64,000 nt of DNA from Thermoflexia bacterium (GCA_011192125.1 DUEL01000055.1:5770-69769), one strand, 5' to 3'. Positions 19,138 to 51,886 are shown, counted from the stretch's first letter. The notes: generated by a model not told the origin, from the letters alone. Program-made: numbers and translations.

Positions 19138-19163
19138 GCGCAATCGTAAGGAGAGACTTCGGT

Positions 19164-20267: not shown

Positions 20268-20290
20268 AGGGTGTCGCCCTGGAGCGGAAT

Positions 20291-21325: not shown

Positions 21326-21384
21326 TCGCGGAGCGCGGAGGTTCTTAGCGAAATCTTCTCCGCGTCCTCTGCGTCTCTGCAGTG
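21326..21384 (+). repeat. Dispersed element, copy B (GCGGAG...TCCTCTGCGTCTCTGCAGTG)
   Basis: gcggagcgcggaggttcttagcgaaatcttctccgcgtcctctgcgtctctgcagtg, 5' of M42 copy 3. Confidence 0.5.
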
Positions 21385-21417
21385 AAATCGGAGCGCGAAC
21401 ACAGAGGGAGAGGAGAC

Positions 21418-22398
21418 GTGAGAGACCTGATTCGCAAACTGACTGAGACCTATGGCCCTTCGGGCTTTGAGGATCGTATCCGTGCGGTGATCCGGGAGGA
21501 GGTCGAGCCGCTGGCCGACGAGGTGCGGGTAACGCCGCTGGGCAGTCTGGTGGCGGTGAAGAAAGGCACCGGCGGGGGCCGGCGGATCATGCTGGCGGCC
21601 CATATGGACGAGATCGGTGTGATGGCCAGCCACGTGGACGACAAAGGGTTCCTCCGCTTCACTGCCATCGGTGGCGTCAACCCTCTTACCTGCGTCGGAG
21701 CGCGGGTGCAGTTCGAGGACGGGACGTTGGGGGTGATCGGCGTTGAGGGGAAGCGGGAGGATCGGACGAAGGCCCCCCGCCTTGATCAGTTGTACATCGA
21801 CGTGGGGGCGACGGGTAAGGATGACTGCCCTGTGCGGGTTGGGGACGCGGCCGTCTTCGTGCGGCCCTTCGCGGTCCGGGGCACGCGGCTCATCGCTAAG
21901 GCAATGGACGACCGGATCGGCTGTGCAGTGCTGATCGAGACCCTGCGGCGGTTGGAGGGGACGTCCAACGAGGTGTATTTCGTGTTCAGTGTACAGGAGG
22001 AGACCACCCTTTCCGGGGCGCGGACGGCAGCTTATGGGATCGAGCCCGATCTGGCGATTGCGGTGGACGTGACCGGGACGGGGGACACGCCGGAGGCACG
22101 GCCGATGGCGGTGGAGTTGGGCAAGGGTCCGGCGGTGAAGGTGCAGGACCGGGGGATGATCGCCCATCCGCTGGTGCGCGACCTGCTGGTGCGGGCGGCG
22201 GAAGCGGCGGGGGTGGCCTGCCAGATGGAGGTCCTGGAGCGCGGCACCACCGACGCGGCGGCGATGCAGTTGGTGCGGGCGGGTGTTCCCTCTGGCTGTC
22301 TTTCCATCCCTTGTCGCTACGTCCACACCCCCAGCGAGATGGTGGATGAGGGGGATGTGGAAGGGGCGGTGAAGGTATTGGTCGAAGCGGTCCGATGA
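21418..22398 (+). CDS. M42 family metallo-aminopeptidase, copy 3 (GTG start at 21418 preferred; ORF opens at GTG 21382)
   Basis: RDLIRKLTETYGPSGFEDRIRAVIREE aligns with N-termini of copies 1 and 2; HMDEIGVMAS, MDDRIGCAVL, VQEETTLSGA; GGGAG 7 nt upstream of 21418. Confidence 0.75.
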   Translation: MRDLIRKLTETYGPSGFEDRIRAVIREEVEPLADEVRVTPLGSLVAVKKGTGGGRRIMLAAHMDEIGVMASHVDDKGFLRFTAIGGVNPLTCVGARVQFEDGTLGVIGVEGKREDRTKAPRLDQLYIDVGATGKDDCPVRVGDAAVFVRPFAVRGTRLIAKAMDDRIGCAVLIETLRRLEGTSNEVYFVFSVQEETTLSGARTAAYGIEPDLAIAVDVTGTGDTPEARPMAVELGKGPAVKVQDRGMIAHPLVRDLLVRAAEAAGVACQMEVLERGTTDAAAMQLVRAGVPSGCLSIPCRYVHTPSEMVDEGDVEGAVKVLVEAVR

Positions 22399-23210
22399 GA
22401 TCGGTGGAGCGGTTGAGCGAACTCTGGCGGTATCGGGAACTGATCTACAACCTGGTCATCCGCGACCTCAAGGCGCGGTACAAGAACTCCATACTGGGCA
22501 TCGCGTGGTCGTGGCTCAACCCGCTGATGATGATGGTGGTCTACACCGTCGTCTTCAACGTCCTTGCGGGCCGCTCCGGGATTCCGGACTACCCGGTCTT
22601 TCTTCTCTCGGCGCTTCTGCCGTGGAACCTGTTTGCCAACTCGGTCGCTGAAGCGACCAACAGCGTCGTCCAATCCGCCCCGCTGATCAAGAAAGTGTAC
22701 TTTCCTCGGGAGGTTCTTCCCATTTCCGTCGTGCTGGGTAACGCAGTGCACTTCGTGATTAGCCTCCCGGTCTTCTTTGGGTTAGCCCTGGCGATGGGAC
22801 GGCCGATCAGTGGGTGGGTACTTTTGTTGCCTGTGACTCTCCTCGTTCAAATCGCGTTCACGCTGGGGGTCGGGCTCATCACGGCCACGTTGAACGTCTT
22901 TTATCGGGACACCTACCTGATAATGAACGTCCTGCTCACGGCGTGGTTTTTCCTGACCCCCATTTTCTATCCCATCACCACCGTCCCGGAGCAATACGTC
23001 CTCTGGGGGATTGTGTTCAACCCTCGGGTCTGGCTGCGCCGGCTGAACCCGATGGCTTCTATCATTGCCTCTTATCAGGACCTCCTCTACTGGGGCGCGC
23101 CCACCGGTTGGGACTTCTTCTTGCGGACAGCTGTGACGTCGGTGGTGGTCCTGATCGTGGGTTACCTGGTCTTCCTACGGTATAGTCCGAGGTTTGGGGA
23201 GGAGGTGTGA
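22395..23210 (+). CDS. wzm: ABC-2 type polysaccharide export permease (Wzm/KpsM/TagG family)
   Basis: ELIYNLVIRDLKARYKNSILGIAWSWLNPLMMM signature and 6 TM helices; 4-bp overlap with M42 copy 3. Confidence 0.8.
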   Translation: MRSVERLSELWRYRELIYNLVIRDLKARYKNSILGIAWSWLNPLMMMVVYTVVFNVLAGRSGIPDYPVFLLSALLPWNLFANSVAEATNSVVQSAPLIKKVYFPREVLPISVVLGNAVHFVISLPVFFGLALAMGRPISGWVLLLPVTLLVQIAFTLGVGLITATLNVFYRDTYLIMNVLLTAWFFLTPIFYPITTVPEQYVLWGIVFNPRVWLRRLNPMASIIASYQDLLYWGAPTGWDFFLRTAVTSVVVLIVGYLVFLRYSPRFGEEV

Positions 23211-36870: not shown

Positions 36871-37629
36871 CTACGTACCCTGGAAAGTACCGGAGATGCA
36901 GACCGAGCTGCTGAGGAGGGTAGGCCACCAGTTGCGCAGGCGGCTGAGGCGGCTAGCGATGCCGAGACGCCGCTCTGGGCGGAAACCAGCCAGCCGATAA
37001 AGCATTTCTACTTGGCGGAAGGTAAAGTAGTGAAGATGACCGGCGTCGAATAAAATGGTGTGGCTGGGGTTATCGGTGAACCCCTCGTTGGGGTACGCTG
37101 CAGCGGTGGTGGGGGCCCGCCCCAACAGCAGGCGTATCCGATGGGGCAGGAAAGCCACGTTAGGCGTCACGGTCACCAGTTGCGTGCCGACCCTGGACAG
37201 GCGGGCCAAAATACGCATAGCACCGATTACATCCACTATATGCTCGATCACATCTGCCCAGATGATACAGTCGAACGGCGAGGTGGCCTTCGCAGCCAGT
37301 CCCTCCAGCGACTCGTTGAGGACAACGCAGTTGGGCAGGTGGCTCAATCCCTGGCGGGCCCGCTCCGCCCGTATAGAGGACAATTCGATGCCAACCACCT
37401 CATCAAAATAGGGTGCCAATGCCGCTAGCACCTCTCCGTGCCCGCAGCCTATCTCCAGCAGGCGACCGCCAGGCCGGGCCAAATACACCACAGCCTGCCT
37501 GCAATCGGTAGGCCATCCACGAACCTCGATAGGCTTCACTCGAACGTCTACCGCCTCTTGGCCCGCGCAATCGCGGTAGACCTCATCGTACTTGGCTGCC
37601 AGCGTCCCGCTGTCTGTCACCCCGGGCAT
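36871..37629 (-). CDS. Class I SAM-dependent methyltransferase (start at 37629 preferred so that a divergent promoter space exists)
   Basis: LLEIGCGHGEVLAALAPYFDEVVGIELS motif I; post-I acidic residue. Confidence 0.55.
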   Translation of the reverse strand: MPGVTDSGTLAAKYDEVYRDCAGQEAVDVRVKPIEVRGWPTDCRQAVVYLARPGGRLLEIGCGHGEVLAALAPYFDEVVGIELSSIRAERARQGLSHLPNCVVLNESLEGLAAKATSPFDCIIWADVIEHIVDVIGAMRILARLSRVGTQLVTVTPNVAFLPHRIRLLLGRAPTTAAAYPNEGFTDNPSHTILFDAGHLHYFTFRQVEMLYRLAGFRPERRLGIASRLSRLRNWWPTLLSSSVCISGTFQGT

Positions 37630-37659
37630 CGTGACTGCCTCGTGAGTCGCCTGTTGTCT

Positions 37660-37688
37660 TTGACCACAAGGGTATACTATGTTAAAAT
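37660..37688 (+). promoter_or_regulatory. Sigma70-like promoter for GT2 gene 37704 (TTGACC-17-TAAAAT)
   Basis: ttgacc acaagggtatactatgt taaaat; about 15 nt before ATG 37704, which lacks an SD. Confidence 0.3.
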
Positions 37689-37703
37689 TTCCAGAAGTCA
37701 AAC

Positions 37704-39707: not shown

Positions 39708-41678
39708 ATGGAACGCAAGTCGAAGGCATTGGTGGGATTGGTCCTCACGGGGTTGATATTTGTCCTGTCATTAACTGGAGGGAGACCTTCCTCGGCCACC
39801 ACGCGGGCCAGCTATACAGTTATCCCCTTGAACGGGGCCAAGATCGTGGGTTCTTCGCCGACGGCCGCTGATTTCAATGGGGATGGGTACAAGGAGATCG
39901 TCGTGGGGGGTAGTGACGGTATCCTGCACGTTGTCTCCTTCGATGGCTTCACGTGGTCCGAGGTGTGGTCCCACCAGACTAATATCGATATCAACGCTGC
40001 CAATCCTCCCAATCCCAACTCCGATAACAACATCCGCACCTCCCCGGCTATTGCTGACCTGGACAACGACGGTCACCTGGATATCGTGGTGACTGTGGGA
40101 GGATTTGTCCATACTGATTTTGAGGACCGGCGCAACGGAGGGGTGCTGGTCTACCGCTATGAGGGGGACTCACCTTGGGACTTTGCGCTGATCGAGCCTC
40201 TCTCCGCGGACGGCTCACGGGGGTGGCCCCAGCCCCGCATAGATCAGATTGGAGCCGGACCGGGCGAAGGAGAGCCGGACGGTCTGTGGGACGGCATCCC
40301 CACTTCGCCAGCGGTAGGCGATATTGACGGTGACGGTGACCTAGAGGTCATCGTCGCGGGGATGGATCGGCGCATCCACGCCTGGCACCACGACGGCACG
40401 GTGGTGGATGGCTGGCCGATCTCCCAATGGAACGGGGACCCCCTCTGGCGGGGCGGGCGTTCCTCTCCAGCGCTGGGGGATATCGACGGGGATGGATTGC
40501 CGGAGATTGTGGTCGGCACGATGAGCCCCTACGAGAATGGGCAACAGGATCAGAACGCAACCCTTTGGGCCCTCAACGGCGATAGCAGCATCGTGCCGGG
40601 CTTCCCAATCCGGACGGAACAACACATCCACTCCTCTCCCGCCCTGGGAGATATTGATGGCGACAGGTATCTGGAGATCGTCGTCGGGGTCGGGGAGGGC
40701 ATCTCCAGCGGCAGGGAGAACATCGTCTACGCCTGGAACCACGACGGTACTCCCCTTCACGTGCCGGGCGGTCAGCCGTGGCCCCGTGAGACCTCCAACA
40801 CTGTTCTGGCTCCACCTGCTCTGGGCGACATCGACGGCGACGGTGAGCCAGAGGTGGTGATCGGCGAAGGAGGGTACGACCTCACCGATGACAACAAGTT
40901 GTACGCCTGGAACGCGGACGGCAGCCTGGTGCCTGGGTTCCCCGTCCTGGTCCCCTCCCCCAGCCCGTGGGCTACTGGCTCGCTCCCCCTGCAATATACG
41001 CCCATTTTGGCCGATTTCGACGGCGACGGGACGGTTGAGATCCTGGCCACGCACCTCAACGATTGGGGCTTTGTGGTAGTGGAGCCGGATGGCACCGTCA
41101 GCGACGTCACAGGGCACCCTATGCGGCAGGGGCTGTGGGCCCCGCCTATGGTGGACGATGTGGACGGCGATGGCCTGCTGGAGATCGTGGCGGCCAGCGG
41201 CGACGCGGACGAGAACGGGGAGATACGTATCTGGGACGAGAACGGTACTACGGCGTCGGCTCTGCCCTGGCCAATGTTCCACCACGACATTGAGCGTACC
41301 GGCCTTTACACCGCCCCTCCCTCCCTGGGATTCCCCGACCAGGTCTGTGTGTTTCACCAACAGGGGAGTGGCCCGTCCGAAAGTGTGAGAGTCTCCATCT
41401 GGAACGAAGGGGATGGGGCGTTCGATTGGGTGCTGGCCTCCTCCACCGGTCTAATTCAGCTTTCACCCACCTCCGGTACGTTGACGGAGAGCACCAGCGT
41501 GCAGTTAACTGTGGATGTTAGCAGCCTTCCCAATGGATGGACGACAGTCGGTCAGATCACCGCGACGGCTACCTATGCAGGGGAGGAGGTTGCGGGTAGC
41601 CCTAGAACCGCCCCGGTCTCGGTGTACGTCGGCGATGTGTACTATGGCTACCTGCCGGTCGTTCTACGGAGGTACTAG
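39708..41678 (+). CDS. Secreted FG-GAP/VCBS-repeat beta-propeller protein
   Basis: Signal peptide; at least 7 repeats of the form ADFNGDGYKEIVVG / ADLDNDGHLDIVVT / GDIDGDGDLEVIVAG / GDIDGDGLPEIVVG. Confidence 0.65.
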   Translation: MERKSKALVGLVLTGLIFVLSLTGGRPSSATTRASYTVIPLNGAKIVGSSPTAADFNGDGYKEIVVGGSDGILHVVSFDGFTWSEVWSHQTNIDINAANPPNPNSDNNIRTSPAIADLDNDGHLDIVVTVGGFVHTDFEDRRNGGVLVYRYEGDSPWDFALIEPLSADGSRGWPQPRIDQIGAGPGEGEPDGLWDGIPTSPAVGDIDGDGDLEVIVAGMDRRIHAWHHDGTVVDGWPISQWNGDPLWRGGRSSPALGDIDGDGLPEIVVGTMSPYENGQQDQNATLWALNGDSSIVPGFPIRTEQHIHSSPALGDIDGDRYLEIVVGVGEGISSGRENIVYAWNHDGTPLHVPGGQPWPRETSNTVLAPPALGDIDGDGEPEVVIGEGGYDLTDDNKLYAWNADGSLVPGFPVLVPSPSPWATGSLPLQYTPILADFDGDGTVEILATHLNDWGFVVVEPDGTVSDVTGHPMRQGLWAPPMVDDVDGDGLLEIVAASGDADENGEIRIWDENGTTASALPWPMFHHDIERTGLYTAPPSLGFPDQVCVFHQQGSGPSESVRVSIWNEGDGAFDWVLASSTGLIQLSPTSGTLTESTSVQLTVDVSSLPNGWTTVGQITATATYAGEEVAGSPRTAPVSVYVGDVYYGYLPVVLRRY

Positions 41679-41683
41679 TTTAA

Positions 41684-42493
41684 GTGGAAGCACTACCACC
41701 CTCCTTCCGGCCTAGCCTACTGACTGTTGTAAAGGATTACATCAACCGAGCAGTTCGGGGAGAGCTCCACCTGCCTCCCTGGTGGTTGCGCGACGTAGGC
41801 GGCAGCGACTTCAGGGCTACGGGGGAGGAGTTTCTTCGCCTGTTCGTCCAGATCGGCGGCCTGCAGCCCGACGAGCGGGTCCTAGAGATCGGCTGCGGCA
41901 GTGGGCGTATGGCTATTCCCCTGACCAGCTATCTGAGTCGCGCAGGGCTTTACGTTGGGATGGACATTACGCGCCCGACCGTCCTGTGGTGCCAGCGACA
42001 CATCTCCCGCCGCTATCCCAATTTCCACTTCCTGCACGTCGATCTCTACAACAAACGCTACAATCCTACCGGGCGGTACCTGGCTAGAGAGTATCCCTTC
42101 CCTTTTAGAGATCAAAGCTTCAGCTTCATTTTTCTCACATCGGTCTTCACCCACCTGCTACCGGAAGATACTGCCCACTACCTGCGCGAGATCGCGCGTA
42201 TGCTGCGTCGGGATGGGCGGGCATTCTTCACTTTTTTCCTGCTTAATGATGAACAACGACGGCTGGCGAAGCGAGGATGCAATGATATCCGTTTTGAGTA
42301 CGGGCCGGGATTCTACCGGGTGCGCGACCCTGCCGTACCGGAAAGTGCCGTTGCCTACGACGAGGTTTATCTTCTCGACCTGCTCTCGGAGTGCGGGTTA
42401 GTTCTGCGCCAACCGGTCTACTATGGCTCGTGGAGTGGTCGGGACGATGGCGTTTCATATCAGGACATCATAATCGTTCAGCACCGGGAATGA
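41684..42493 (+). CDS. Class I SAM-dependent methyltransferase
   Basis: VLEIGCGSGRMAIPL motif I, DITRP motif II. Confidence 0.65.
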   Translation: MEALPPSFRPSLLTVVKDYINRAVRGELHLPPWWLRDVGGSDFRATGEEFLRLFVQIGGLQPDERVLEIGCGSGRMAIPLTSYLSRAGLYVGMDITRPTVLWCQRHISRRYPNFHFLHVDLYNKRYNPTGRYLAREYPFPFRDQSFSFIFLTSVFTHLLPEDTAHYLREIARMLRRDGRAFFTFFLLNDEQRRLAKRGCNDIRFEYGPGFYRVRDPAVPESAVAYDEVYLLDLLSECGLVLRQPVYYGSWSGRDDGVSYQDIIIVQHRE

Positions 42494-42504
42494 CGTTGTA
42501 GGGC

Positions 42505-43488
42505 ATGGAGACGGAAACTACGGTTATCATTCCGAACTGGAATACCAGGCACTGGCTGCCAGGTTGTCTAGGCGGCCTGCGTGAGCAGATCTATCGAGAC
42601 TTTCGGATTATCCTAGTGGATAACGGCTCAACTGATGGTTCGGTCACCTTCGTGCGGGAGTACTATCCTGAGGTCCAGGTTCTGGCTTTTGATCGAAATA
42701 GGGGGTTCGCCTCGGCGGTCAACGCTGGCATCCGAGAGTCCCATTCCCCCTATGTAGCTCTGCTTAATGTTGATACGATACCTCTGCCGGGCTGGCTACT
42801 CCATCTGGTCGAAACGATCAAGAGCGGTCCCGATGTTGGCAGCGTGGCCTCTAAGATGCTACAGTTGGAGAACCCGACCCTCGTGGATGATGCGGGCGAC
42901 ATGTTCAGTTGGTACGGATCGGCCCGCAAGCGGGGACAAGGAGAGCCAGCCCAATGGTATGATCGTCCGGAGGAAGTATTATCTGCCTGCGCTGGTGCGG
43001 CTCTTTACCGCCGCGCGCTGCTTGAGGAGCTGGGAGGTTTTGATGAGTCGTTCGTTAGCTATCTGGAGGACATTGATCTGGGGCTGCGAGCACGGCTTCT
43101 AGGTTATCGCTGTCTATACGCACCCGAGGCGAGGGTGCTCCACCAAGGGCACGGGGCTGGCATTGCCCGTTCACGGTATGTCTATCTAATGACCCGCAAC
43201 CGGTTGGCTGTGCTGACCAAGAACATCCCCTCATCCCTGCTGCGCAAGCACTGGCGGACCTTGCTCTATGGTCAGTTCTATTTCTTCCTGGTCTATAAGC
43301 GGCCGCTCCACTCCATTGCCGGCACCGTCGCCTGGCTGGTGGCCTTACCGCGCCTCTTGAGGCAACGGCGCGAGATCCAGGCGCGGAAGGTCATTTCGGA
43401 TCAGACGCTGGAGGCTCTGCTCTCCACCGAGCTAGGAGAAATTCCGCTCAGGGAGATCATTGTCAACAAACTGCGGCGAGTTTCATAA
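42505..43488 (+). CDS. Glycosyltransferase family 2 (WbbL-like rhamnosyltransferase type)
   Basis: TTVIIPNWNTRHWL...ILVDNGSTDGS...LNVDTIP...DEDIDLGLR. Confidence 0.75.
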   Translation: METETTVIIPNWNTRHWLPGCLGGLREQIYRDFRIILVDNGSTDGSVTFVREYYPEVQVLAFDRNRGFASAVNAGIRESHSPYVALLNVDTIPLPGWLLHLVETIKSGPDVGSVASKMLQLENPTLVDDAGDMFSWYGSARKRGQGEPAQWYDRPEEVLSACAGAALYRRALLEELGGFDESFVSYLEDIDLGLRARLLGYRCLYAPEARVLHQGHGAGIARSRYVYLMTRNRLAVLTKNIPSSLLRKHWRTLLYGQFYFFLVYKRPLHSIAGTVAWLVALPRLLRQRREIQARKVISDQTLEALLSTELGEIPLREIIVNKLRRVS

Positions 43489-44844
43489 GTGCCGCACCTT
43501 CCAACGCGCATACTCGTGTAGCTGGGTGACAATGCCTCTCGCACCTCCCAGTCGCAAGGCTCGCCAGCCTTTTTGTAGCAGCCGTCGCCAACCTCCCCAT
43601 TTCCCTGAAGGGATTACCCCCCCTATGGGATACCCCTTGTCAGGTGCGGTGTAAGGGGCGGCGCAGAAATCCGCTAGCGGCTTCACAACGATATCCCATC
43701 GGTAATTTTTCGCTACTTCCTGTATGCGGTCCCGACGCTCCTGACAGTCGATCGGGTCTCTCAATACATCCAAGATGGCTCGAGCTACCCCTTCGACGTC
43801 ACCAGGTGCGACCAGTGTAGCCAGCCCCTGGGCAGCCAGTGTCTCCCCCATCACGTCGCCGACCGTCGCGACAATGGGCAGTCCTGCCCACAAGTAGTCC
43901 AGCAGGCGTGTTCGGAAGGCAAAGCGTGTTTCTACATGATCCAGATGCAGGCTGACGCCCACGTCTGCCTCAAGCAGGTAGTTCTGGCGCTCGTCGTAGG
44001 GGACCCAGTCGTTGAAGAAAATATGGGTTCCGTACAGCCCCATTTCCTTACTGAGCGCAATAGCCTGCTCTACCGCTGTTGTCCGCGCACGCTCCTGGTT
44101 GGAGCGCTTGATGCCCATGAAGAAAAGCTTAACGTCGTCACGATGGGCTAGTATACGTGGCATAGCCTTGATCATTGTTGGTGCGTCGAACCATTCCCAA
44201 ATGCCCCCGCCCCACAAGATAACCTTGTCGTGAGGCTGGATGAAGGGAGAAACTCCCTTCAGGACGGGGTGGGTGTGCTGTGGCGGTTCTGCAGGCAAGC
44301 CGAAAGGCACAACAGCGATCAGTCGGCGCAACGAGGGGTCGTCTTGATAGGTATACGGGTTGACGCGCCCCGCAGCCGAGAGCATACCTAGCCAGTAATC
44401 CCGCTGTTTCTCACCTGCGCAGATAAAGAAATCGCCCGCGCGCAGCTGGAGCCAGAGCGCTTCAAGATAATTCTCATACGAAATGAGACGGTCCAGCCAG
44501 TCCATATGGGCCTTACGTTGCAGATCCTCTAACAAGAAAGGATCGTAAAGGTCCACCACCAGGGGCTTTCCAGATTCGGCCACGAATGGGTAAAGAAACA
44601 GCACAACCCCCAATGTCACAACCACATCGCAGTCCTCGACCAGTGCGCGCAACTCCCGCACTGTAGGGCAGATCCGAAGCCAATCTTCGCCAGAGGGTGG
44701 GGTTTGGGGGGCAATGAAGGGCGGTACTGCCAGGGTGACATCAAAGTGCTGGCCCAGCGCGCGCGTTAGCTCCCAGTAGCGGATGCCGGGGCCGGCCATG
44801 TTCTTGCCCACGATGTCGTTGCATATAAGAAGAACCCGAGTCAT
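43483..44844 (-). CDS. GT-B glycosyltransferase (GT4-like)
   Basis: MTRVLLICNDIVGKNMAGPGIRYWELTRAL N-domain; C-terminal GLPIVAT...E motif; ATG 44844 chosen (ORF opens GTG 44853). Confidence 0.55.
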   Translation of the reverse strand: MTRVLLICNDIVGKNMAGPGIRYWELTRALGQHFDVTLAVPPFIAPQTPPSGEDWLRICPTVRELRALVEDCDVVVTLGVVLFLYPFVAESGKPLVVDLYDPFLLEDLQRKAHMDWLDRLISYENYLEALWLQLRAGDFFICAGEKQRDYWLGMLSAAGRVNPYTYQDDPSLRRLIAVVPFGLPAEPPQHTHPVLKGVSPFIQPHDKVILWGGGIWEWFDAPTMIKAMPRILAHRDDVKLFFMGIKRSNQERARTTAVEQAIALSKEMGLYGTHIFFNDWVPYDERQNYLLEADVGVSLHLDHVETRFAFRTRLLDYLWAGLPIVATVGDVMGETLAAQGLATLVAPGDVEGVARAILDVLRDPIDCQERRDRIQEVAKNYRWDIVVKPLADFCAAPYTAPDKGYPIGGVIPSGKWGGWRRLLQKGWRALRLGGARGIVTQLHEYARWKVRHL

Positions 44845-45100
44845 ATTCCTCACTCTATTTCCTATTTCTACTGCGGAGCTAATTATACCACTAGGCTACT
44901 CGCCATCAACATGATATGGGGAGGTGCTCAAGGTATTCGAATCAGAAGCGTAGGACAGCATCTCTCCACGACATATCGGTTTATCGGCTCACTGCTATCA
45001 CGGGGGAACAATTATGTGCCGGAGGCGCATCGCACCTGCGACAGGGGCTATAATGGGAGGGACAGGACGGCTTATTGCTTGACACAAGCACTAGGCGGCT

Positions 45101-45189: not shown

Positions 45190-48144
45190 ATGCCTTTCTC
45201 TGTTTATTTTATCAGCGGTTGCAAGGCTGGCACCACTTTTGAATACCGCGTCTTGCAAAAACAGGAGCAATTGGCCGCGTATGGTATCCCCAGCCTGGCA
45301 CGGCAGGAGCTGGTCGACCGCGAGCAACTCCTCCAAGAGGCAGCGTCCCATGATGTGCTCTATCTCTATCGCATTGCCTATGGTCCCCTCATCGAAGATC
45401 TGATTGAGCAAGCGCGCGGGCAGGGTATTCCTGTTGTCTTCGACATAGATGATTTGGTGTTCGAGCCCGAATTGGTTCACTGTGTGGATCCTGTTAGAGC
45501 GATGGATCACGAGGAGGCGGCCCTCTACTATAAAGGCGTTTGGCGCTACCGCCGCACGCTCCTGGCCAGTGATGCGGTTGTTACCTCCACCGGGTATCTG
45601 GCAGAGAGAGCGCGCGCTCTGGGCAAACGGGCCTTTGTGCATCGTAACGGCCTCAGCAGGTGGATGATCGAAGAAGCATCTCGTCTGGTTGAGCAGCGTC
45701 GAACGCAATCGAACTCCGAAAGGGTGATCATCGGGTATGGCAGTGGTACAGCTACCCATCGTAAGGATCTGGCCGAAGCAGCCGAAGCGCTAGGGGAGAT
45801 TATGGCCCGCTATCCCTATGTCGAACTGCACATTGTGGGTGCGCTCCACCTCAGCGATCCATTGCCTTTGCCAGATGAACTCAAACCATTCGCCGACCGC
45901 ATTCGGCATCGCCCCGCCGTGGCCTGGCGGGACTGGCTCGCTGTGCAGAGTAGCTTCGATATCAATCTTGCCCCTCTGGAATCCGGCAACCCCTATTGTG
46001 AAGCCAAGAGCGAGATCAAATACACTGAGGCAGCCATCGTAGGTGTGCCGACCGTCGCCAGCCGCACTGGCGCCTTCGAGTTCGCCATCCGCGACGGCGA
46101 GACCGGGTTCCTGGCTGGTGACACCGATGAGTGGGTGGCTAAGCTGGAAGCATTGGTGACCGACGCACCGCTGCGCCAGCGGATGGGGGAAGCAGCTCGT
46201 CTCGATGTGCTCGCCCGATACACGCCGGAGGTGCTGGGGAAGCAGTTGGTGGAAACGTTGACTACCATTCAGACCTTCCACCATCAAACCCGTGCGGCGG
46301 TTTCGATCCCTGGCACAGCCGAGGCCCCTCTGATTCTGAACTGGATCTTTCCGGAGCCAATCCCCGGCTCCGGTGGGCACAGGAACATTGTTCGGATGAT
46401 CAACCTGCTGGCCAGTTTCGGTCATCAGGTCAACGCCTACATTGTACCGCGCTACCACCTGTGGGACAAAAGTGATCTGGAGGTGCGCGCGTTCGTGCGT
46501 CGTCACTTCACCGACCTTGACGCCGGGGTTTTCAAATGGGCTGGCGGGCCAATGGTTGAATCGGACGCGGTTGTCCTGACCCACTGGTCCACGGCCTATC
46601 TAATCGACAATGTTAGGAACACCTCGAAGATCTTCTACTTTGTGCAGGATTGGGAGCCCTTCTTCTTCCCGATGGGAACCGACTACCTGCGTGCGGAACA
46701 GACCTACAAAATGGGCTTTTCTTGCATCACTCTCGGGCGCTGGTTAACCAAGCGGCTGCGGGAGTGGTACAACGCCGACGCGGACTATTTCGACCTGGCG
46801 GTGGACCACCATATCTACTACCCTCGTCCGGTTGAGAAAGCTGACCATCCTCGTATCTGCTTCTACGCCCGCCCCTCTACCCCTCGTCGTCTCTTCCCAA
46901 TCGGGATTGAGGCGCTTGAGCGGATCCACCAGCGCCGTCCAGATGTAGAAATCGTTCTCTATGGCACTGAGGATGCGGAACTGTGCCAATATGAGATCTC
47001 GTTTCCTTACACGAATCGAGGTATCCTCACAGAGGAGGAACTGGCTGAGCTGTTCTCAGCCTGCGAGGTGGGCATAGTCCTCTCCCCCACCAATTGTTCC
47101 CTGATCCCTCCGGAGATGATGGCCTGTCGTTGTGCCGTGGTGGACCTGAACCGGGAAACGGTGATGGGAGTGCTGGAGCATGAGGTCAACGCGCTGCTGG
47201 CGGAGCCGACGCCGGAGGCTATCGCTGAGGCGGTGCTGCGCCTGCTGGAAGACGAGCCACTGCGCCAACGGCTGGTGGAGACGGCCTATCGACAGATGCA
47301 GGAGCGCTCTTGGCTCAAGTCGGCGCGGAAGGTGGAGGAGATCTTGTACCGGAAGTTGCCCGCGATGCGCCGAGGGCTTGCCCCGCATCGTTTCAAAATG
47401 CTCCCAAATCTGCCCGCGCTGGGCGGTTTACCCGAGGATCAGCAATACCGCCTGAACATCATCCACGCCGCCCGGCGGCGGGTGTTCGCGCAGGGAAAAG
47501 CCGTCCTCTGGGCGTGGTGGGAACGGATTCTGAGGACGGTCCGACGTGTGACGCTGAACGGAGCGACAGTGCGGCCACTGGGTGAGCTAACGGGTCGACG
47601 GCAGATTGGGCAGCACTTCGTTGCCCGACGGGATGGACTCTATCGGGTGGATGTGCTAGTCGACACCTACGGCCGCTGCAACACACGCGATATCATATTT
47701 CGCCTCAGGGAGTCTCCCACTGCCGAGGATGATCTGGCAACCGTGCGCGTCAACGCCAGCCTGCTACTCGACCGGGGGTATGTCAGCTTTGCCTTCACTC
47801 CCCTGACTGACTCAGGTGGCAAATCCTACTATTTTGTCATCGAGTCGCCGGAATCAGTGCCGGGGGACGCGATCACTCTATGGGCATACCGTGATGCCGA
47901 TGTGCCGGGTGCAGAGCTGGAGTGGAACGGGCGCACCATCAGCGGGCATCTGGTCTTCGGGTTGTTCTATTGGGATGAGCGGGTGGGTGTCGTGGGAGAG
48001 CGTCCCCTCTTACACGAATGGAGCGGAGGGATCACTTTCTTGGATCGGCTGAAAAAGGGCTTGCACGTACTTGCGGTTCAGGGGCTGAAAGGGCTGCAGC
48101 GTGAGGTGGTGAACTACTGGAAGTGGAAGACCGGGCGAGTATGA
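45190..48144 (+). CDS. Large multidomain glycosyltransferase (at least two GT-B modules plus C-terminal domain); N-terminal module paralogous to 49235..50611
   Basis: 984 aa; N-terminal 100 aa align with gene 49235..50611 (YxxxxxxGxxxxxxYRxxxxQEQLAxxGIP...DxDDLVFxPEL); central WsaF-like Rossmann module; RBS GGAGAGG. Confidence 0.55.
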   Translation: MPFSVYFISGCKAGTTFEYRVLQKQEQLAAYGIPSLARQELVDREQLLQEAASHDVLYLYRIAYGPLIEDLIEQARGQGIPVVFDIDDLVFEPELVHCVDPVRAMDHEEAALYYKGVWRYRRTLLASDAVVTSTGYLAERARALGKRAFVHRNGLSRWMIEEASRLVEQRRTQSNSERVIIGYGSGTATHRKDLAEAAEALGEIMARYPYVELHIVGALHLSDPLPLPDELKPFADRIRHRPAVAWRDWLAVQSSFDINLAPLESGNPYCEAKSEIKYTEAAIVGVPTVASRTGAFEFAIRDGETGFLAGDTDEWVAKLEALVTDAPLRQRMGEAARLDVLARYTPEVLGKQLVETLTTIQTFHHQTRAAVSIPGTAEAPLILNWIFPEPIPGSGGHRNIVRMINLLASFGHQVNAYIVPRYHLWDKSDLEVRAFVRRHFTDLDAGVFKWAGGPMVESDAVVLTHWSTAYLIDNVRNTSKIFYFVQDWEPFFFPMGTDYLRAEQTYKMGFSCITLGRWLTKRLREWYNADADYFDLAVDHHIYYPRPVEKADHPRICFYARPSTPRRLFPIGIEALERIHQRRPDVEIVLYGTEDAELCQYEISFPYTNRGILTEEELAELFSACEVGIVLSPTNCSLIPPEMMACRCAVVDLNRETVMGVLEHEVNALLAEPTPEAIAEAVLRLLEDEPLRQRLVETAYRQMQERSWLKSARKVEEILYRKLPAMRRGLAPHRFKMLPNLPALGGLPEDQQYRLNIIHAARRRVFAQGKAVLWAWWERILRTVRRVTLNGATVRPLGELTGRRQIGQHFVARRDGLYRVDVLVDTYGRCNTRDIIFRLRESPTAEDDLATVRVNASLLLDRGYVSFAFTPLTDSGGKSYYFVIESPESVPGDAITLWAYRDADVPGAELEWNGRTISGHLVFGLFYWDERVGVVGERPLLHEWSGGITFLDRLKKGLHVLAVQGLKGLQREVVNYWKWKTGRV

Positions 48145-48171: not shown

Positions 48172-49224
48172 TCAGAGAGCCTGCCGCCTAACGTCGAACC
48201 GTTTCGCTACCCTGTTTAACCAGTTCAGCAGGCGCATCACGCGGCCCCGACTGATTTGATCGAGTAACTCCCTATACCGCTGAAGCATGAGACGCAGCTC
48301 GTGCGTTTCATACTCCCGCACCCAACGATAGTAGGTGCTCATATCCATAGGAGTTATATCTCCAGAGGCGGCCTCTGGTGGTTGGGGGCCACCAGGATAC
48401 TGGAAATTAAGGGGATATCCCCAAACCGCCATCTCCGGGCCGCAAATCCTGGCAAGCACTTGTTTCTGTTCGCGTGTCCAATCCACAGGATAGAAGAAGT
48501 CTCCGACATCTTTTTCGGGAAAAGCCGTGTTCTCCCGCCGTGATTTGAACACATCGGCGACGGCCTGACTCCACTCGGGCACCCCCAGGAAATCAGTCAC
48601 TCGACGCGCGACTTGGCCAGGTTCGGTCACAATGTGCTCCTGCGCGACCTCAATGTAACGTCCGGTTAAAAGGGGTCGGACCTGGCGCCACATTTTCATC
48701 ACTGCGACCCAATGCTTGCAGGTAGAGAGGAACACTGCATCCACATTGGCTTTGCTATCGTGGTTTCTCTGCATGTAGGCGATCGTTGAGTTGACGGTGG
48801 TGATCGCGTTACGTTTCATGAAAATGAACTGGGCCTGTGGGAATATCTCTGCCAGCATTGGGGCAACCAATACCGCATCCACACCGGGGGACTTGCTTAC
48901 CCAGCGCACGCACTCGGGTGGCAACTGATCACGGTGGAATTGATCAATCAGCAGCGCTATCTGACGCTCCAGCAGCAGGTTACGCCCCGCTCCCAGTGCA
49001 AAGATCTCCTCACGGAGGTGCGCCTTATACTCGGGATCGCGCCACCACGCGAGCGGCTTAATCAGATCATACCACAGATGATCCTCTGGAAACCCGAAGA
49101 ACCCGGCTACACGCAGGGCTCGCCACATAATCGAGGTGCCTGTGCGCTGTCGACCGAGGATAAAAATCGGGTCGAGTTGCCGCCACTGTGCTTCTATTTC
49201 ATCCATCCCTGGTATTTGCCCCAT
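48172..49224 (-). CDS. Sulfotransferase family protein with C-terminal amphipathic helix/coiled coil
   Basis: 5'-PSB-like P-loop ILGRQRTGTSIMWRAL; 3'-PB-like region; C-terminal ...DQISRGRVMRLLNWLNRVAKRF. Confidence 0.5.
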   Translation of the reverse strand: MGQIPGMDEIEAQWRQLDPIFILGRQRTGTSIMWRALRVAGFFGFPEDHLWYDLIKPLAWWRDPEYKAHLREEIFALGAGRNLLLERQIALLIDQFHRDQLPPECVRWVSKSPGVDAVLVAPMLAEIFPQAQFIFMKRNAITTVNSTIAYMQRNHDSKANVDAVFLSTCKHWVAVMKMWRQVRPLLTGRYIEVAQEHIVTEPGQVARRVTDFLGVPEWSQAVADVFKSRRENTAFPEKDVGDFFYPVDWTREQKQVLARICGPEMAVWGYPLNFQYPGGPQPPEAASGDITPMDMSTYYRWVREYETHELRLMLQRYRELLDQISRGRVMRLLNWLNRVAKRFDVRRQAL

Positions 49225-49234
49225 CTCTCACTCG

Positions 49235-50611
49235 CTAGCCCTGGATATTCCGTCCTGCGGCTCGTCGCCATAGGCGTTGGAGGCTCGTTAACAACCGCAT
49301 CACGCGGCCTTGCATTATAGCCTCGATAGTCTGCTCGAGGTCGGCTATCCGCTGCTCCGCCCTCATCAATCCAGCCTCGTAACTCCGCATAGCCTGCCGC
49401 AGTCCCTTGATCTGTTCCTCTTGCTCTCGGATCTGTTGTTGTATCTCACTCGCGTATCGCTCGACGCCTGCAATGAAGATATGCCACAGCTCGTTCTTGT
49501 TAGCCGGAGGGCCGCCGTACTGCTGGCGGATGTCGCTCAACGTGGCCCACAGCTCCTCAGCCCGCCGTTCGGGCGTGTAGCGGGCGTACACGGTGCGGCG
49601 GGCAGCCTCGCCCATCTCCCGGCGTCGTTGAGGGTGGTCCAGCAACATCTGTAGAGCTTCACGCCACTCGTCGGGCGAGTTGACAAGCAGGCCGTTGCGC
49701 CCGTGGGCAATAGCATACTCATAGGCTTCCGCACGGCTAGCCACAGTGGGTACTCCCACCAACGCTGCCTCGACGAACTTGATCTCGCTCTTGGCCTGGC
49801 AGAAGGGATTATCTGTCTCCAATGGCACTAGGTTGATGTCGGCCTGAGCGATAACATGCGGTAACTCGCGCCAGGTCATATAGGGCGTACGGCGGATGCG
49901 GGACCGAAGCGGTTCGAACGCCGGGCTCAACTCTAGGTAGCCGCCGATGTGCAGCCAGACCCAGGGGTAGGTGGACATCACCCATACGAGCGGTTCAGTG
50001 ATGGTTTGAAAATCACGGTTGTGGGAAGCGGTACCGCTGAAATAGCCAATGACAACGGGCCGTGCCGCGTTGCTCTCCTCAAGACGGCGCTGCCGTTCAG
50101 CCCACGCTTGCTCAGAGATGCGGAACATCTCGGCGTTAGGGGCGTTGCGGTTGACATAGGCTGGCTTGCCCCGTCGCCGCGCCTCCTCTGCCAGGAACTC
50201 TGTCGTAGTGAGCACACAGTCGCAATGTTGAAAGGTCTCTTCCAGCCGTGCCAGGTCCGCTCGAAAGCGGCGCGCTACCTCCGGAGGGAGTGTGTCTACC
50301 AAGCCAATATGCGCATATAGCTCGGGGTCGAAAACGAGGTCGTCCGTGTCAAAGATGACAGGCTTACCCTGAGCGTGAGCGAGCTCGATGATCAGACCGA
50401 CCAGCGGGCTGAACGGCACGCGGTGTAGTATGAAGACATCGTAGTCGAAAACATCTGTTAGTAACTGCGGGTCGTCGTCCTCGCGCAGTGATGTGGGTAC
50501 GCCTTTGAGAGCTAGCTGTTCTTGTTGATGGATGCACCGATAGCGGCGCGTATCACCGCCTATTCCACTGATGAAAAGTACCTTGAAGGCCTCCGCCTTC
50601 GTTGTTGTCAT
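49235..50611 (-). CDS. GT-B glycosyltransferase with about 70-aa C-terminal coiled coil
   Basis: GT4-like core (KSEIKFVEAALVGVPTVASR); C-terminal heptad-rich EIQQQIREQEEQIKGLRQAMRSYEAGLMRAEQRIADLEQTIEAIMQGRVMRLLTSLQRLWRR; ATG 50611 with GGAGGGG RBS. Confidence 0.55.
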   Translation of the reverse strand: MTTTKAEAFKVLFISGIGGDTRRYRCIHQQEQLALKGVPTSLREDDDPQLLTDVFDYDVFILHRVPFSPLVGLIIELAHAQGKPVIFDTDDLVFDPELYAHIGLVDTLPPEVARRFRADLARLEETFQHCDCVLTTTEFLAEEARRRGKPAYVNRNAPNAEMFRISEQAWAERQRRLEESNAARPVVIGYFSGTASHNRDFQTITEPLVWVMSTYPWVWLHIGGYLELSPAFEPLRSRIRRTPYMTWRELPHVIAQADINLVPLETDNPFCQAKSEIKFVEAALVGVPTVASRAEAYEYAIAHGRNGLLVNSPDEWREALQMLLDHPQRRREMGEAARRTVYARYTPERRAEELWATLSDIRQQYGGPPANKNELWHIFIAGVERYASEIQQQIREQEEQIKGLRQAMRSYEAGLMRAEQRIADLEQTIEAIMQGRVMRLLTSLQRLWRRAAGRNIQG

Positions 50612-50653
50612 AATGTTCAACCCCTCCACTGCACCGCTGTTGTCGCACGCCCG

Positions 50654-51886
50654 TCAAGTGGTCCTTTTGCTTTTTCCTTCCCCTTCCCACACCCATTCTC
50701 CCCGCAATGTCAGAATGCCAAACCGTTCCCCATCCGAAGGTAGCACCCGAAGGGGGTACAACCGGTTATGATAGTCGTATATTTCTGTATCCTCCCAATC
50801 GTGAGCGGAGACGGAGAGGTAGTAGAGACCCTTTAGGAGGGGCAAAGCCGGGACGATGTATCGCACCGTTCCTTCCCCTTCTACCCAGGGGATCTCTAGG
50901 CCTGCGAACCGGGTGTTCGGCCCGGTAACGTGGACTCCGTCGCTGCGGTGGATGGCCAGGCCAAAGATCGGCCGCTCTACTCGCTCCTGGGCTTGATACC
51001 GCATCTCCACCACCAGGGGCTCTCCTACTCGGAACTGTTGCCTCTCCTGGCCCTCGCCATCTAACAAGCGGACAGCGATGATCTTTATCTTGCCACTTCC
51101 CCAACGGCGGCTATCTCCCCTAGCGGCGTGAAGCCGCCCCTTCTCTGCTGCCCAGGTGCGGTCCAGATACCGCAGTACCACTCCCTCGGCGGGGCCATCG
51201 TCCACCAGTTGGCCCTGGTCCAGCCATATGGCTCGAGAACAGATGGACCGGACGGCCTCTGGGGCGTGGGACACGAAGAGGATGGTCACCCCTTGCCGCC
51301 GCAGGTCATCTATCCGCTCCAGGCACTTGCGCTGGAAGGCTGCGTCTCCCACTGCCAGTACCTCGTCCACTAGCAGAATATCTGGCTCAGTGTGGACGGC
51401 GACGGAGAAGCCCAGCCGCACGTACATCCCGGAGGAGTAGTGCCTCACCGGCACATCGATGAACCGCTCCAGTTCGGCGAAACCGATGATGTCATCCAGT
51501 TTGCGGCGGATCTCCGCTCGGCTCAGGCCCAGGATAGAACCATTGAGGTAGATATTCTCCCTGCCGGTCAGGTCCGGGTGAAAGCCTGCACCCAATTCCA
51601 GAAGAGCCCCAACCCGTCCATCTACGACGATCCGGCCGGAGGTAGGCTCGATGATGCGGGAGATCAGTTTAAGGACAGTGCTCTTGCCTGCTCCGTTGGG
51701 GCCGATCAGCCCCACCGTCTCCCCCTGCTCGACGGTGAAACTCACATCCCGCAACGCCCAGAACTCCTCCCGGGAGTGCTCGTTACGGCGAAGGAGATGG
51801 AGGGCCAGCTCCTGGAAGGAACGGGCCCTCTCGTGGTGAAGTGTGAATCTTTTGGAGACACTCTCAAAACGGATTGCCACACTCAA
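50654..51886 (-). CDS. wzt: ABC transporter ATP-binding protein for polysaccharide export with C-terminal carbohydrate-binding domain (Wzt/TagH-like); TTG start
   Basis: Walker [10 protein letters not shown], signature LSGGM-type region, Walker B ILLVDE; about 150-aa C-terminal extension typical of Wzt O-antigen-binding domain; GAGGA RBS before TTG 51886. Confidence 0.8.

Follow-up and report, generated by a model that had tools for sequence, protein, structure and literature searches.

The closest described systems are the coiled-coil polymerase-terminators of ABC-dependent O-antigen assembly. The catalytic sites of WbdD lead into a coiled-coil ruler, after which a C-terminal amphipathic helix associates with the membrane and includes a site that recruits the polymerase, and a C-terminal coiled coil has been called a consistent feature of terminating enzymes (PMC11231755). 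WbdD is encoded with wzm and wzt, and the Wzt carries a binding domain that reads the cap (PMC11231755, PMC3482155). The carbohydrate-binding domain (CBD) of A. aeolicus Wzt, the nearest solved Wzt to the one studied here, reads a 3-O-methyl sugar cap (PMC9445017). In K. pneumoniae, O4 ORF7 (GT137) and O12 WbbB place glycosyltransferase heads on coiled coils and act as Kdo chain terminators; in O4 the polymerase and terminator are separate polypeptides joined in a complex. The characterised coiled-coil polymerase-terminators that these papers describe come from Proteobacteria and have methyltransferase, kinase or Kdo-transferase heads.

The window analysed here, a 64 kb stretch of DNA from a Thermoflexia bacterium, encodes in one run a Wzt-type exporter ATPase, a GT4 glycosyltransferase with a coiled coil (GT(cc)) and a PAPS-type sulfotransferase (ST), all co-directional (Table 1). 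The likeness to WbdD (E. coli O9a / K. pneumoniae O3) is one of layout: the parts occur in the same order, a catalytic head is extended by a coiled coil, and the locus includes a CBD-bearing Wzt. However, the heads belong to a PAPS sulfotransferase and to a GT4 rather than to a methyltransferase-kinase, the coils (31 aa in ST and 63 aa in GT(cc)) are much shorter than the WbdD C-terminal domain (residues 460-708), and two or three distinct enzymes in a locus bear the tail. For ST and GT(cc), Pfam and NCBIfam returned only sulfotransferase or GT4 catalytic families plus coiled-coil matches due to chance, and nothing specific to WbdD or WbbB. An LPS O antigen is an improbable product, given that the hosts belong to Chloroflexota. 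These loci present what appears, on sequence grounds, to be a coiled-coil terminator-type layout in Chloroflexota, with a tail motif that can be searched for.

Table 1. Features of the glycan locus, in window coordinates
Feature	Coordinates	Strand	Remarks
wzt, ABC exporter ATPase with C-terminal carbohydrate-binding domain (~residues 259-390)	50654..51886	-	first of the wzt-GT-ST run
GT(cc), GT4 with coiled coil and tail	49235..50629	-	464 aa; between wzt and ST
GT(cc) predicted coiled coil, aa 378-440	49310..49498	-	AF2 single helix; heptads; length varies among orthologues
GT(cc) predicted hinge and cationic amphipathic helix, aa 441-464, GRVMRLLTSLQRLWRRAAGRNIQG	49238..49309	-	motif, moment, charge, conservation
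ST, PAPS-type sulfotransferase with tail	48172..49224	-	350 aa; last gene of the wzt-GT-ST run
ST predicted short coiled-coil helix, aa 295-325	48250..48342	-	AF2 helix H295-325; heptads in pooled tail profile
ST predicted hinge and cationic amphipathic helix, aa 327-350, GRVMRLLNWLNRVAKRFDVRRQAL	48175..48246	-	AF2, moment, charge
984-aa dual GT4, module 2 WsaF-like	45190..48144	+	convergent with ST; candidate polymerase
Conserved syntenic remainder	39708..44853	mixed	Pfam; synteny and identity in L001, L002, L006
FG-GAP protein	39708-41678	+	syntenic block
Methyltransferase MT269	41684-42493	+	syntenic block
GT2	42505-43488	+	syntenic block
GT4-456	43483-44853	-	syntenic block
wzm, ABC-2 permease	22395..23210	+	Pfam ABC2_membrane 4e-15; sub-threshold NCBIfam Wzm/RfbD, KpsM
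Sulfatase-family gene	1523-2845		Pfam Sulfatase 6e-34

The sequence GRVMRLL is the core of what appears to be a portable C-terminal module, predicted to comprise a heptad coiled coil, a Gly-Arg hinge and a cationic amphipathic helix of ~20 residues that closes the protein. That ST and the glycosyltransferase share this C-terminal motif had been noted in the first-pass annotation, and the observation holds. In a six-frame scan, GRVMRLL occurs at exactly two sites in the window, at the C-termini of ST (...LDQISRGRVMRLLNWLNRVAKRFDVRRQAL) and of the adjoining GT4 (...IEAIMQGRVMRLLTSLQRLWRRAAGRNIQG), and the relaxed pattern G[RK][VIL]M[RK]hh finds the same two sites only within the 64 kb. Of the 855 ORFs in the window, the tail profile matches ST and GT(cc) alone (E 4e-18 and 5e-14; the next match has 1.6). 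The likeness is not a chance one, because non-circular profiles made from the orthologues of one family retrieve the tail of the other (E 3.4e-7 and 5.2e-6, with the next-best match >0.5). The tail is conserved in 24 ST orthologues, in which G327 and R328 are invariant, and the 37 GT orthologues that were aligned all share G441, R442, M444 and R445. Together, these comparisons support homology of the two tails under strong constraint. Recent gene conversion between them was also considered, and is ruled out by the DNA identity around the motif (38/72) and by divergence at synonymous sites.

The first-pass annotation had called for a search of the motif against the proteome; a wider one covered 1.84 billion protein representatives in addition to the window ORFs. 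The profile found 71 carriers at E<=1e-3, in all of which the tail lies at the extreme C-terminus; this exhaustive search supersedes an earlier word-indexed protein search with a 44-column tail alignment (116 candidates, 1 match). Most carriers are encoded on metagenome contigs. Without exception, full-length carriers with a recognised domain are glycan-assembly enzymes, namely Sulfotransfer_3 and Stf0-type sulfotransferases, Methyltransf_11/25/23/24, GT4s and GT2-GT4 fusions. Rather than being private to ST and GT(cc), the motif marks a portable module found on at least five enzyme classes. Two or three carriers per locus are common, and most adjoin a Wzt with a Wzt_C domain (window, L002, L004, L006, L007 and L009). 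Carriers and CBD-type exporters do not always go together, as the carrier loci L008, L010 and L011 show no Wzt within the DNA at hand.

These carriers bear directly on the concern, raised earlier, that the motif could be a common Chloroflexota C-terminal sorting or processing signal (PEP-CTERM or LPXTG style) found on unrelated proteins, with no link to glycans. The basic-rich tail is always terminal, as such a signal would be. However, all Pfam-matching carriers are cytoplasmic enzymes dependent on nucleotide sugars, SAM or PAPS, the tail has no hydrophobic stretch of transmembrane length, and ST and GT(cc) have neither a TM segment nor a signal peptide. Moreover, no Pfam or NCBIfam sorting-signal model matches the tail, which only two ORFs of the window bear. 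The searches turned up neither the tail on secreted proteins with unrelated functions nor its cleavage by a dedicated sortase or exosortase. We reject the sorting-signal reading, to which we attach a negligible probability.

The anatomy of the module was resolved by pooling 165 tails. The Gly is present in 100% of them, followed by Arg at +1 (99%), Val at +2 (93%), Met at +3 (96%) and Arg at +4 (96%). Before the Gly, hydrophobic residues occupy heptad a/d positions with 3-4 spacing as far as position -3. After it, hydrophobic residues recur at +2, +3, +5, +6, +9, +12, +13 and +16 and basic residues at +1, +4, +11, +14, +15 and +19, with acidic residues nearly absent. The 3.6-residue periodicity of this helix is conserved across the 165 tails, and it is terminal in every case (median 20 residues from the Gly to the C-terminus, range 12-35). 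In the PDB, the part of the profile before the Gly matches designed coiled-coil peptides and the part after it matches nothing; neither Pfam nor NCBIfam has a model for GRVMR. The post-Gly helix has a hydrophobic moment of 0.65-0.73 and a net charge of +4 to +5.

FtsA and MinD are otherwise soluble proteins that carry short cationic amphipathic membrane-targeting helices at their C-termini. The FtsA helix, GSWIKRLNSWLRKEF, has a similar hydrophobic moment, 0.57 compared with the 0.65-0.73 of the GRVMR tails. The tails differ from those of FtsA and MinD in having a coiled coil and Gly hinge before the helix and in that their first five residues are near-invariant across enzyme families. Such constraint on G-R-V-M-R exceeds what is expected of a simple lipid-binding helix and hints at a specific protein contact.

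GT(cc) carries the longer coil. Its catalytic head matches PF13524, PF13692 and PF00534 (Glyco_trans_1_2, Glyco_trans_1_4 and Glycos_transf_1; 59.9, 45.5 and 40.6 bits) above cut-off, and the AF2 model (pLDDT 88.7) has a GT-B head for which the top Foldseek matches are MshA, HepE, PglA and BshA. A hydrophobic window flagged at aa 65-83 sits in an AF2 strand and is not a true TM segment. The model places residues 378-462 in one helix, 63 of them ahead of the Gly, roughly as the first-pass annotation had supposed in describing a heptad-rich helix of ~70 aa. Heptad a/d hydrophobic residues lie at -27, -24, -20, -17, -13, -10, -6 and -3 from the Gly, and the terminal helix has a hydrophobic moment of 0.73 and a net charge of +5; the AF2 monomer has no break at G441. 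The public annotation starts this gene at 50611, the same position at which the interval described in the first-pass annotation ended.

Among the 37 GT orthologues, between 81 and 134 aa separate the catalytic domain from the Gly. The change in coil length is 0, 3 or 4 mod 7 in 22 of the 24 unequal cases, i.e., it proceeds by heptad or half-heptad steps. Over 363 aa, GT(cc) is 45% identical to module 1 of the 984-aa glycosyltransferase, a candidate polymerase, and from this similarity appears to be a paralogue of that module. Its orthologues adjoin Wzt or are one gene off in L002, L004, L006 and L007. GT(cc) fits the pattern of ORF7 and WbbB, but it is an ordinary GT4 (GT-B) akin to the polymerase and not a Kdo transferase. 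Given the long, length-variable coil and the paralogy with polymerase module 1, GT(cc) is a better ruler or terminator candidate than ST.

We consider it probable that the tail brings glycan-assembly enzymes, which would otherwise be soluble in the cytoplasm, to the membrane beside the exporter. The coil would oligomerise the enzyme, and the terminal helix would lie flat along the surface of the cytoplasmic membrane, possibly touching a common partner. The catalytic head may thus be held at a fixed distance from the membrane, next to the glycan as it grows on its lipid, to the dual-GT polymerase and to the Wzm/Wzt exporter. In the window, the module would bring in a GT4 on a long, length-variable coil and a PAPS sulfotransferase on a short one. 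Membrane binding and oligomerisation are what we infer from the helix and the coil, and such positioning of the head would correspond to the role that the WbdD C-terminal region is held to play.

The motif could instead serve a complex rather than the membrane, if ST and GT(cc) formed a specific heteromeric zipper through their coils and the GRVMR segment. Consistent with this, the two genes adjoin and their motif is identical, their orthologues co-occur (directly in L001, L002, L004 and L007, and in ~14 cases going by matching lengths of the longest contig), many loci have two or three carriers, and conservation of exact residues suggests protein-protein contact. However, some loci have a single carrier: in L004 ST retains the motif but the GT tail has degenerated, and in L008 and L009 one GT fusion each is the sole carrier. 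In addition, Arg falls at would-be heptad a/d sites, every carrier has a net charge of +4 to +5 in this region, so that like-charged helices would repel one another, and the coils are of unequal length (31 aa in ST, 63 aa in GT(cc)). An ST-GT zipper is therefore unlikely, and membrane recruitment by the tail remains the reading that we prefer.

The head of ST is, by sequence and predicted structure, a genuine PAPS-sulfotransferase fold. It matches PF13469 (Sulfotransfer_3) over profile positions 1-215 of 216 (E 1.1e-17), scoring 65.5 bits where the cut-off is 27, and an ST profile search of the PDB matches TPST1/2 and the CurM sulfotransferase. For the AF2 model (pLDDT 86.5), the top 50 Foldseek matches in the PDB are sulfotransferase-fold proteins solved with PAP or PAPS (TPST1/2, CurM, Stf9, 3-OST and SULTs), and none is a kinase. 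The possibility of a kinase fold, to which the first-pass annotation had alerted in calling this P-loop protein a sulfotransferase, fails on these matches. The segment GRQRTGTS (residues 24-31) is near-invariant, and R138 and S146 are invariant in the 24 orthologues; these align with GMPRSGTT and R...HS of TPST. We take GRQRTGTS to be the 5'-phosphosulfate-binding (PSB) loop and R-x7-S to be the 3'-phosphate-binding (PB) motif. Towards the C-terminus, the model has a helix that is interrupted at residues 326-327 and restarts as H328-349. The coil, at ~31 residues, is of roughly constant length, and the terminal helix has a hydrophobic moment of 0.65 and a net charge of +4.

As the closest solved relatives of ST, by both sequence and fold, are tyrosylprotein sulfotransferases, its acceptor could be a protein or peptide tyrosine rather than a glycan. 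ST shares a fold and PAPS-binding motifs with TPST and CurM, but identity is just ~20%, Sulfotransfer_3 is a broad family, and ST adds a coiled-coil tail. The gene lies inside a conserved glycan locus, the tail is common to glycosyltransferases and sugar methyltransferases, and no candidate peptide-substrate gene was seen beside ST. Tyrosine sulfation is thus very improbable; in contrast to TPST and CurM, the context of ST points to a glycan acceptor.

The ST family comprises 52 clusters; wherever a source names its organism, this belongs to a Chloroflexota lineage. A contig scan with the single ST sequence gave one locus, and gene context comes from exact-protein look-ups. In L006, all neighbours are kept at 59-77% identity, and a tail-bearing methyltransferase, which adjoins wzt, takes the place of ST. 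ST is thus an accessory, lineage-variable member of the locus, exchangeable with a tail-bearing methyltransferase.

Could ST be the chain terminator, sulfating the non-reducing terminal sugar to halt polymerisation, with the Wzt CBD reading the sulfate or sulfated sugar for export? The window Wzt matches ABC_tran (1e-21) and Wzt_C (9.6e-30), and among solved structures it is closest to the A. aeolicus Wzt in full length (8dku, E 7.7e-74), in an alignment that extends into the CBD; given the Wzt_C domain, a cap is expected (PMC9445017). ST lies within the wzt-GT-ST run, in which wzt and GT(cc) are separated by 24 nt, and it has the layout of head, coil and amphipathic helix held to be typical of terminators (PMC11231755). 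The wzt-proximal run of the window has no methyltransferase, the methyltransferase of L006 replaces ST as alternative capping chemistries would, and L002 has a second tail-bearing ST directly upstream of wzt.

Other observations weigh against a sulfate cap. ST is accessory, while GT(cc) recurs with Wzt in syntenic loci, and the ST-bearing L002, L004 and L007 each also have a wzt-adjacent methyltransferase, and so two candidate terminators. The window CBD is nearest to that of the ST-less L006 (55.6% identity, versus 35-41% to ST-bearing loci), though the NBD is closest to that of L004. Where A. aeolicus Wzt has its cap-trapping loop, the aligned loop of the window Wzt is acidic (WEDTE) and has gained no basic residues, a weak, alignment-based indication; the alignment with the A. 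aeolicus pocket ends before the equivalent of Trp362, leaving the acidic loop and the grouping with L006 as what can be read. The length-variable coil sits on GT(cc), whereas that of ST is short and near constant. MT269, which is kept in the closest syntenic loci L001, L002 and L006, could provide a methyl cap. Known caps are methyl, (methyl)phosphate and Kdo (PMC9445017), and we found neither a sulfotransferase terminator nor a sulfated ABC-dependent glycan of Chloroflexota in the literature; a wzt-adjacent ‘sulfotransferase-domain’ ORF of A. salmonicida has no known product.

On balance, a terminating role for ST is possible but doubtful, and the comparisons somewhat disfavour it. The WbdD-like reading of the first-pass annotation therefore stands in part: a layout of head, predicted coil and predicted amphipathic helix beside a CBD-bearing Wzt is present, but the case for ST as the terminator is weakened by its accessory status and short coil. 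More tentative still is the idea that in some Chloroflexota the cap read by Wzt is a sulfate or sulfated sugar made by coiled-coil-tethered ST, perhaps on a residue added by the GT4. Should this hold, sulfate would be a new export-licensing cap, the fourth cap chemistry beside methyl, methyl-phosphate and Kdo, and the GRVMR tail would tag interchangeable terminator modules.

The tail shared by sulfotransferases, methyltransferases and glycosyltransferases may provide a handle with which to list members of assembly complexes in uncultured lineages. The swap of a tail-bearing ST for a tail-bearing methyltransferase in syntenic loci could serve as a natural test of what the Wzt CBD reads, and the heptad-step variation of the GT coil makes a prediction for chain-length control.

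In the wider locus, wzm is 27 kb from wzt, at the far edge of a large glycan region. No wzm remnant was found upstream of wzt, and the small genes that precede wzt in L006 and L009 show no similarity to the window Wzm. The sulfatase-like gene of the first-pass annotation does have a Sulfatase Pfam match, but its protein contains no [CS]x[PA]xR formylglycine motif anywhere, and the expected N-terminal region reads THSPYT. In L007, rmlC/B/D adjoin ST. The 984-aa glycosyltransferase, kept at 60-76% identity in L001, L002, L004 and L006, comprises two GT4 stretches, WsaF_N and WsaF_C, with its C-terminal ~260 aa lacking a Pfam assignment. It shares WsaF_N and WsaF_C with the WsaE/WsaF system of the Geobacillus stearothermophilus S-layer glycan. 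Unlike the window, the WsaE/WsaF and A. aeolicus systems have methyl caps and no sulfotransferase part. Pfam identifies the three methyltransferases counted earlier in the window, at 26260-27231, 36871-37701 and 41684-42493. The last of these is MT269, and GRVMR tails occur in other genomes on homologues of MT269 (P0227/L010) and of GT4-456 (L007, L009 and L011).

The sulfotransferase ST and the neighbouring coiled-coil GT4 glycosyltransferase, GT(cc), end as the first-pass annotation had given them, in a shared GRVMRLL tail, and the likeness between these tails is real and significant. In a six-frame translation of the window, G[RK][VIL]M[RK]hh (h, hydrophobic) occurs at two sites only, the ends of ST and GT(cc), and the tail profile matches the same two among 855 ORFs. 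To guard against circularity, one profile was built from ST-family tails and another from GT-family tails, with the window sequences left out; each detects the tail of the other protein (E 3.4e-7 and 5.2e-6; next-best ORF E >0.5). The motif is invariant or near-invariant in 24 ST orthologues and 37 aligned GT(cc) orthologues. DNA identity around the motif is only 38/72 between the two genes, so the likeness reflects long-term constraint, and recent copying is rejected.

The tail combines a heptad coiled coil, a Gly-Arg hinge and a cationic amphipathic C-terminal helix. Across 165 non-redundant tails pooled in one profile and numbered relative to the Gly, hydrophobic residues fall at -27, -24, -20, -17, -13, -10, -6 and -3, a textbook a/d heptad pattern, and the hinge is nearly fixed (G 100%, R 99%, V 93%, M 96%, R 96%). 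Arg +1 and Arg +4 occupy what would be heptad a/d positions, and the coil register therefore ends at the Gly. Beyond it, hydrophobic residues recur at +2, +3, +5, +6, +9, +12, +13 and +16 and basic residues at +1, +4, +11, +14, +15 and +19, with acidic residues nearly absent; the C-terminus lies a median of 20 residues from the Gly (range 12-35). The window tails have hydrophobic moments of 0.65 (ST) and 0.73 (GT(cc)) and net charges of +4 and +5, respectively. The AF2 model of ST (pLDDT 86.5) places helices at 295-325 and 328-349 with a break at 326-327, and that of GT(cc) (pLDDT 88.7) a single helix at 378-462. Neither protein has a true transmembrane segment, the one hydrophobic stretch flagged in GT(cc) (aa 65-83) being a strand in the AF2 model. 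When the profile is run against the PDB, matches (all to designed coiled-coil peptides) are confined to its pre-Gly half, and neither Pfam nor NCBIfam has a model for the tail.

Run over 1.84 billion representative proteins, the tail profile gives 71 matches at E ≤ 1e-3, all at the extreme C-terminus. Many are contig-edge fragments, and domain classes were taken from full-length carriers with Pfam matches: Sulfotransfer_3 proteins, an Stf0-type sulfotransferase, four kinds of SAM methyltransferase (Methyltransf_11/25, _23, _24 and a 50%-identical homologue of the tail-less window methyltransferase MT269), GT4 enzymes, and GT2-GT4 fusions of 830-872 aa. The tail thus does occur on other proteins, as a common sorting signal on unrelated proteins would, but all carriers with a recognised domain are cytoplasmic glycan-assembly enzymes; a sorting signal is rejected, the tail having no feature of one. 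Two window proteins lack the GRVMR tail while homologues of theirs have it: the glycosyltransferase GT4-456 matches the GT4 module of tailed fusions in L007, L009 and L011 at 42-50% identity, and MT269 is 50% identical to the tailed P0227 in L010. The tail must therefore have been gained or lost repeatedly. More distant GT4 paralogues (P0114-P0172) carry a helical tail with another conserved end, ...FWR...Q..LREILARLE..., and no GRVMR; these ends may represent a second tail class.

The catalytic heads are conventional. As first proposed, the P-loop protein is a sulfotransferase: its profile matches PDB entries for tyrosylprotein sulfotransferases (TPST) and the CurM sulfotransferase, with E from 2e-9 to 4e-6, its GxxRxGT[ST] loop and R138...S146 pair align with the TPST nucleotide-binding motifs, and its top Foldseek matches are all PAPS sulfotransferases, which refutes a kinase fold. 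GT(cc) has the GT-B fold of an ordinary GT4, and over 363 aa its catalytic domain shares 45% identity with module 1 of a 984-aa dual glycosyltransferase, the likely polymerase.

The genes for wzt, GT(cc) and ST form a co-directional run with gaps of 24 and 10 nt. The gene for the 984-aa protein converges on this run. On its far side are genes for a GT4 and a GT2, then for a methyltransferase and an FG-GAP protein.

Features of the glycan regions of the window
Feature	Position	Strand	Assignment
Sulfatase-like gene	1523-2845	+	Pfam Sulfatase (6e-34), SGSH_C
wzm	22395-23210	+	start of the wider glycan region
FG-GAP repeat protein	39708-41678	+	N-terminal hydrophobic segment
MT269	41684-42493	+	methyltransferase
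GT4-456	43483-44853	-	GT4 glycosyltransferase
984-aa protein	45190-48144	+	two GT4 modules, second WsaF-like
ST	48172-49224	-	Sulfotransfer_3 (1.1e-17)
GT(cc)	49235-50629	-	GT4 glycosyltransferase
wzt	50654-51886	-	Pfam ABC_tran and Wzt_C (9.6e-30)

The interval 22.4-51.9 kb is dense in glycosyltransferases and methyltransferases, with housekeeping genes beyond 52.2 kb. Genes wzm and wzt lie at the two ends of this glycan region, with 27 kb between them. Upstream of wzt, the window has no wzm remnant, and at that place related loci likewise have a gene not recognisable as a Wzm. GC content is 51-60% in two glycan clusters (1-13700 and 22400-51900) and 64-69% in the intervening oxidoreductase/peptidase genes (14000-22000) and the right-hand housekeeping flank, as is typical for polysaccharide loci that vary and may be exchanged horizontally.

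The block of Wzt with its carbohydrate-binding domain (CBD), GT(cc), ST, convergent 984-aa glycosyltransferase, GT4, GT2, methyltransferase and FG-GAP protein is kept in the related loci L001, L002 and L004, and GT(cc) accompanies Wzt in all syntenic loci that have a GT(cc).

Tailed proteins in the window and in related loci of other genomes (MT, methyltransferase; GT, glycosyltransferase)
Locus	Tailed proteins	Remark
Window, L001	GT + ST	
L002	ST + GT + ST	
L004	ST only	GT tail degenerate
L006	MT + GT	
L007	MT-GT4 fusion + GT + ST	beside rmlC/B/D
L008	one dual GT4	
L009	one GT2-GT4	directly after Wzt(CBD)
L010	one MT	
L011	one MT	

Locus L006 is the telling case: it is close to the window (identity 66% for GT(cc), 72% for the 984-aa protein, 59% for GT4-456, 64% for GT2, 65% for MT269 and 77% for the FG-GAP protein) and has no ST within 10 kb. 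In place of ST, its wzt is adjoined by a 271-aa methyltransferase ending ...FKNGRLMRLLLGVQNWWRKLV. Because the block persists with this tailed substitute, ST is an accessory, swappable member. That some loci have just one carrier speaks against the tail serving only as an ST-GT zipper. In L002 (4213-6398), the genes immediately upstream of the CBD-bearing wzt encode a further tailed sulfotransferase and a further ABC ATPase of 291 aa that lacks a CBD. The FG-GAP protein shows the highest conservation in the syntenic block, at 77-80% identity in L001, L002 and L006.

In WbdD, catalytic sites are followed by a coiled-coil ruler and, at the C-terminus, by an amphipathic helix that associates with the membrane and has a site recruiting the polymerase; terminating enzymes consistently have a C-terminal coiled coil, and in K. 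pneumoniae O4, terminator and polymerase are separate polypeptides assembled into a complex (PMC11231755). The predicted layout of ST and GT(cc) has the WbdD order of parts; the first-pass annotation was right on this architecture and in reading the two as assembly-complex or terminator-type proteins. The likeness drawn to WbdD-type proteins is one of layout, with no claim to family membership, and the heads differ. The tail system is a variant of this known coiled-coil polymerase-terminator design; what is new is a portable, conserved tail in Chloroflexota, marking interchangeable glycan-modifying enzymes, sulfotransferases included.

From the invariant P353 to hinge G441, GT(cc) orthologues span 81-134 residues (88 in the window). 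In 24 of 37 the length is not 88; in 11 of these 24 the difference is divisible by 7 (binomial p ~2e-4) and in 22 it is 0, 3 or 4 mod 7 (p ~8e-7), both p values being rough since the sequences are related. Such register-preserving change is expected for a coiled-coil spacer under length tuning. The orthologues P0083, P0084, P0088 and P0090 contain literal tandem KDEVIKH heptads, suggesting that coil length evolves through heptad duplication. Unlike that of GT(cc), the short ST coil, with a spacing to the hinge of mostly 56-62 residues, has no heptad-step pattern.

Is sulfate, alone or on a sugar added by GT(cc), the cap read by Wzt? A CBD-bearing Wzt implies a cap, and ST has a terminator-like layout within the wzt run, is replaced by a tailed methyltransferase in L006 and has a second tailed counterpart adjoining wzt in L002. 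The cap chemistries known so far are methyl, (methyl)phosphate and Kdo (PMC9445017), and no report of a sulfotransferase terminator was found in the literature searched. Against a sulfate cap, L002, L004 and L007 each have a wzt-adjacent methyltransferase as well as ST, and MT269 is kept in L001, L002 and L006, the nearest of the syntenic loci. The window CBD is nearest to that of L006 (55.6%, versus 35-41% for ST-bearing loci), though the ATPase domain is nearest to that of L004, and no ST-specific CBD clades appear among the six loci compared. Wzt residues 361-372, aligned to the cap-trapping loop of the A. aeolicus Wzt CBD, are strongly acidic. Finally, by ruler logic the distal head belongs to GT(cc), since the long, variable coil is on this protein and not on ST. 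We consider a sulfate cap unlikely, and the sulfate-based termination first proposed an over-reach; more likely, ST is an accessory decoration enzyme delivered to the assembly site by its tail. The acidic Wzt segment of the window is unlike that of all related loci compared.

The supposed sulfatase of the neighbouring cluster does have a Sulfatase domain, but its product has no C/S-x-P/A-x-R formylglycine motif, no signal peptide and no transmembrane segment; the region near the N-terminus where we presume the formylglycine site would lie reads THSPYT. Lacking motif and signal peptide, the gene adds little to the sulfur argument. The protein probably belongs to the alkaline phosphatase superfamily and uses a different nucleophile, rather than being a true sulfatase. 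No Pfam family matches the last ~260 residues (~720-984) of the 984-aa dual glycosyltransferase; they terminate in a basic helix (...LKGLQREVVNYWKWKTGRV) and, judged by sequence, may fold into a beta-rich domain of carbohydrate-binding type.
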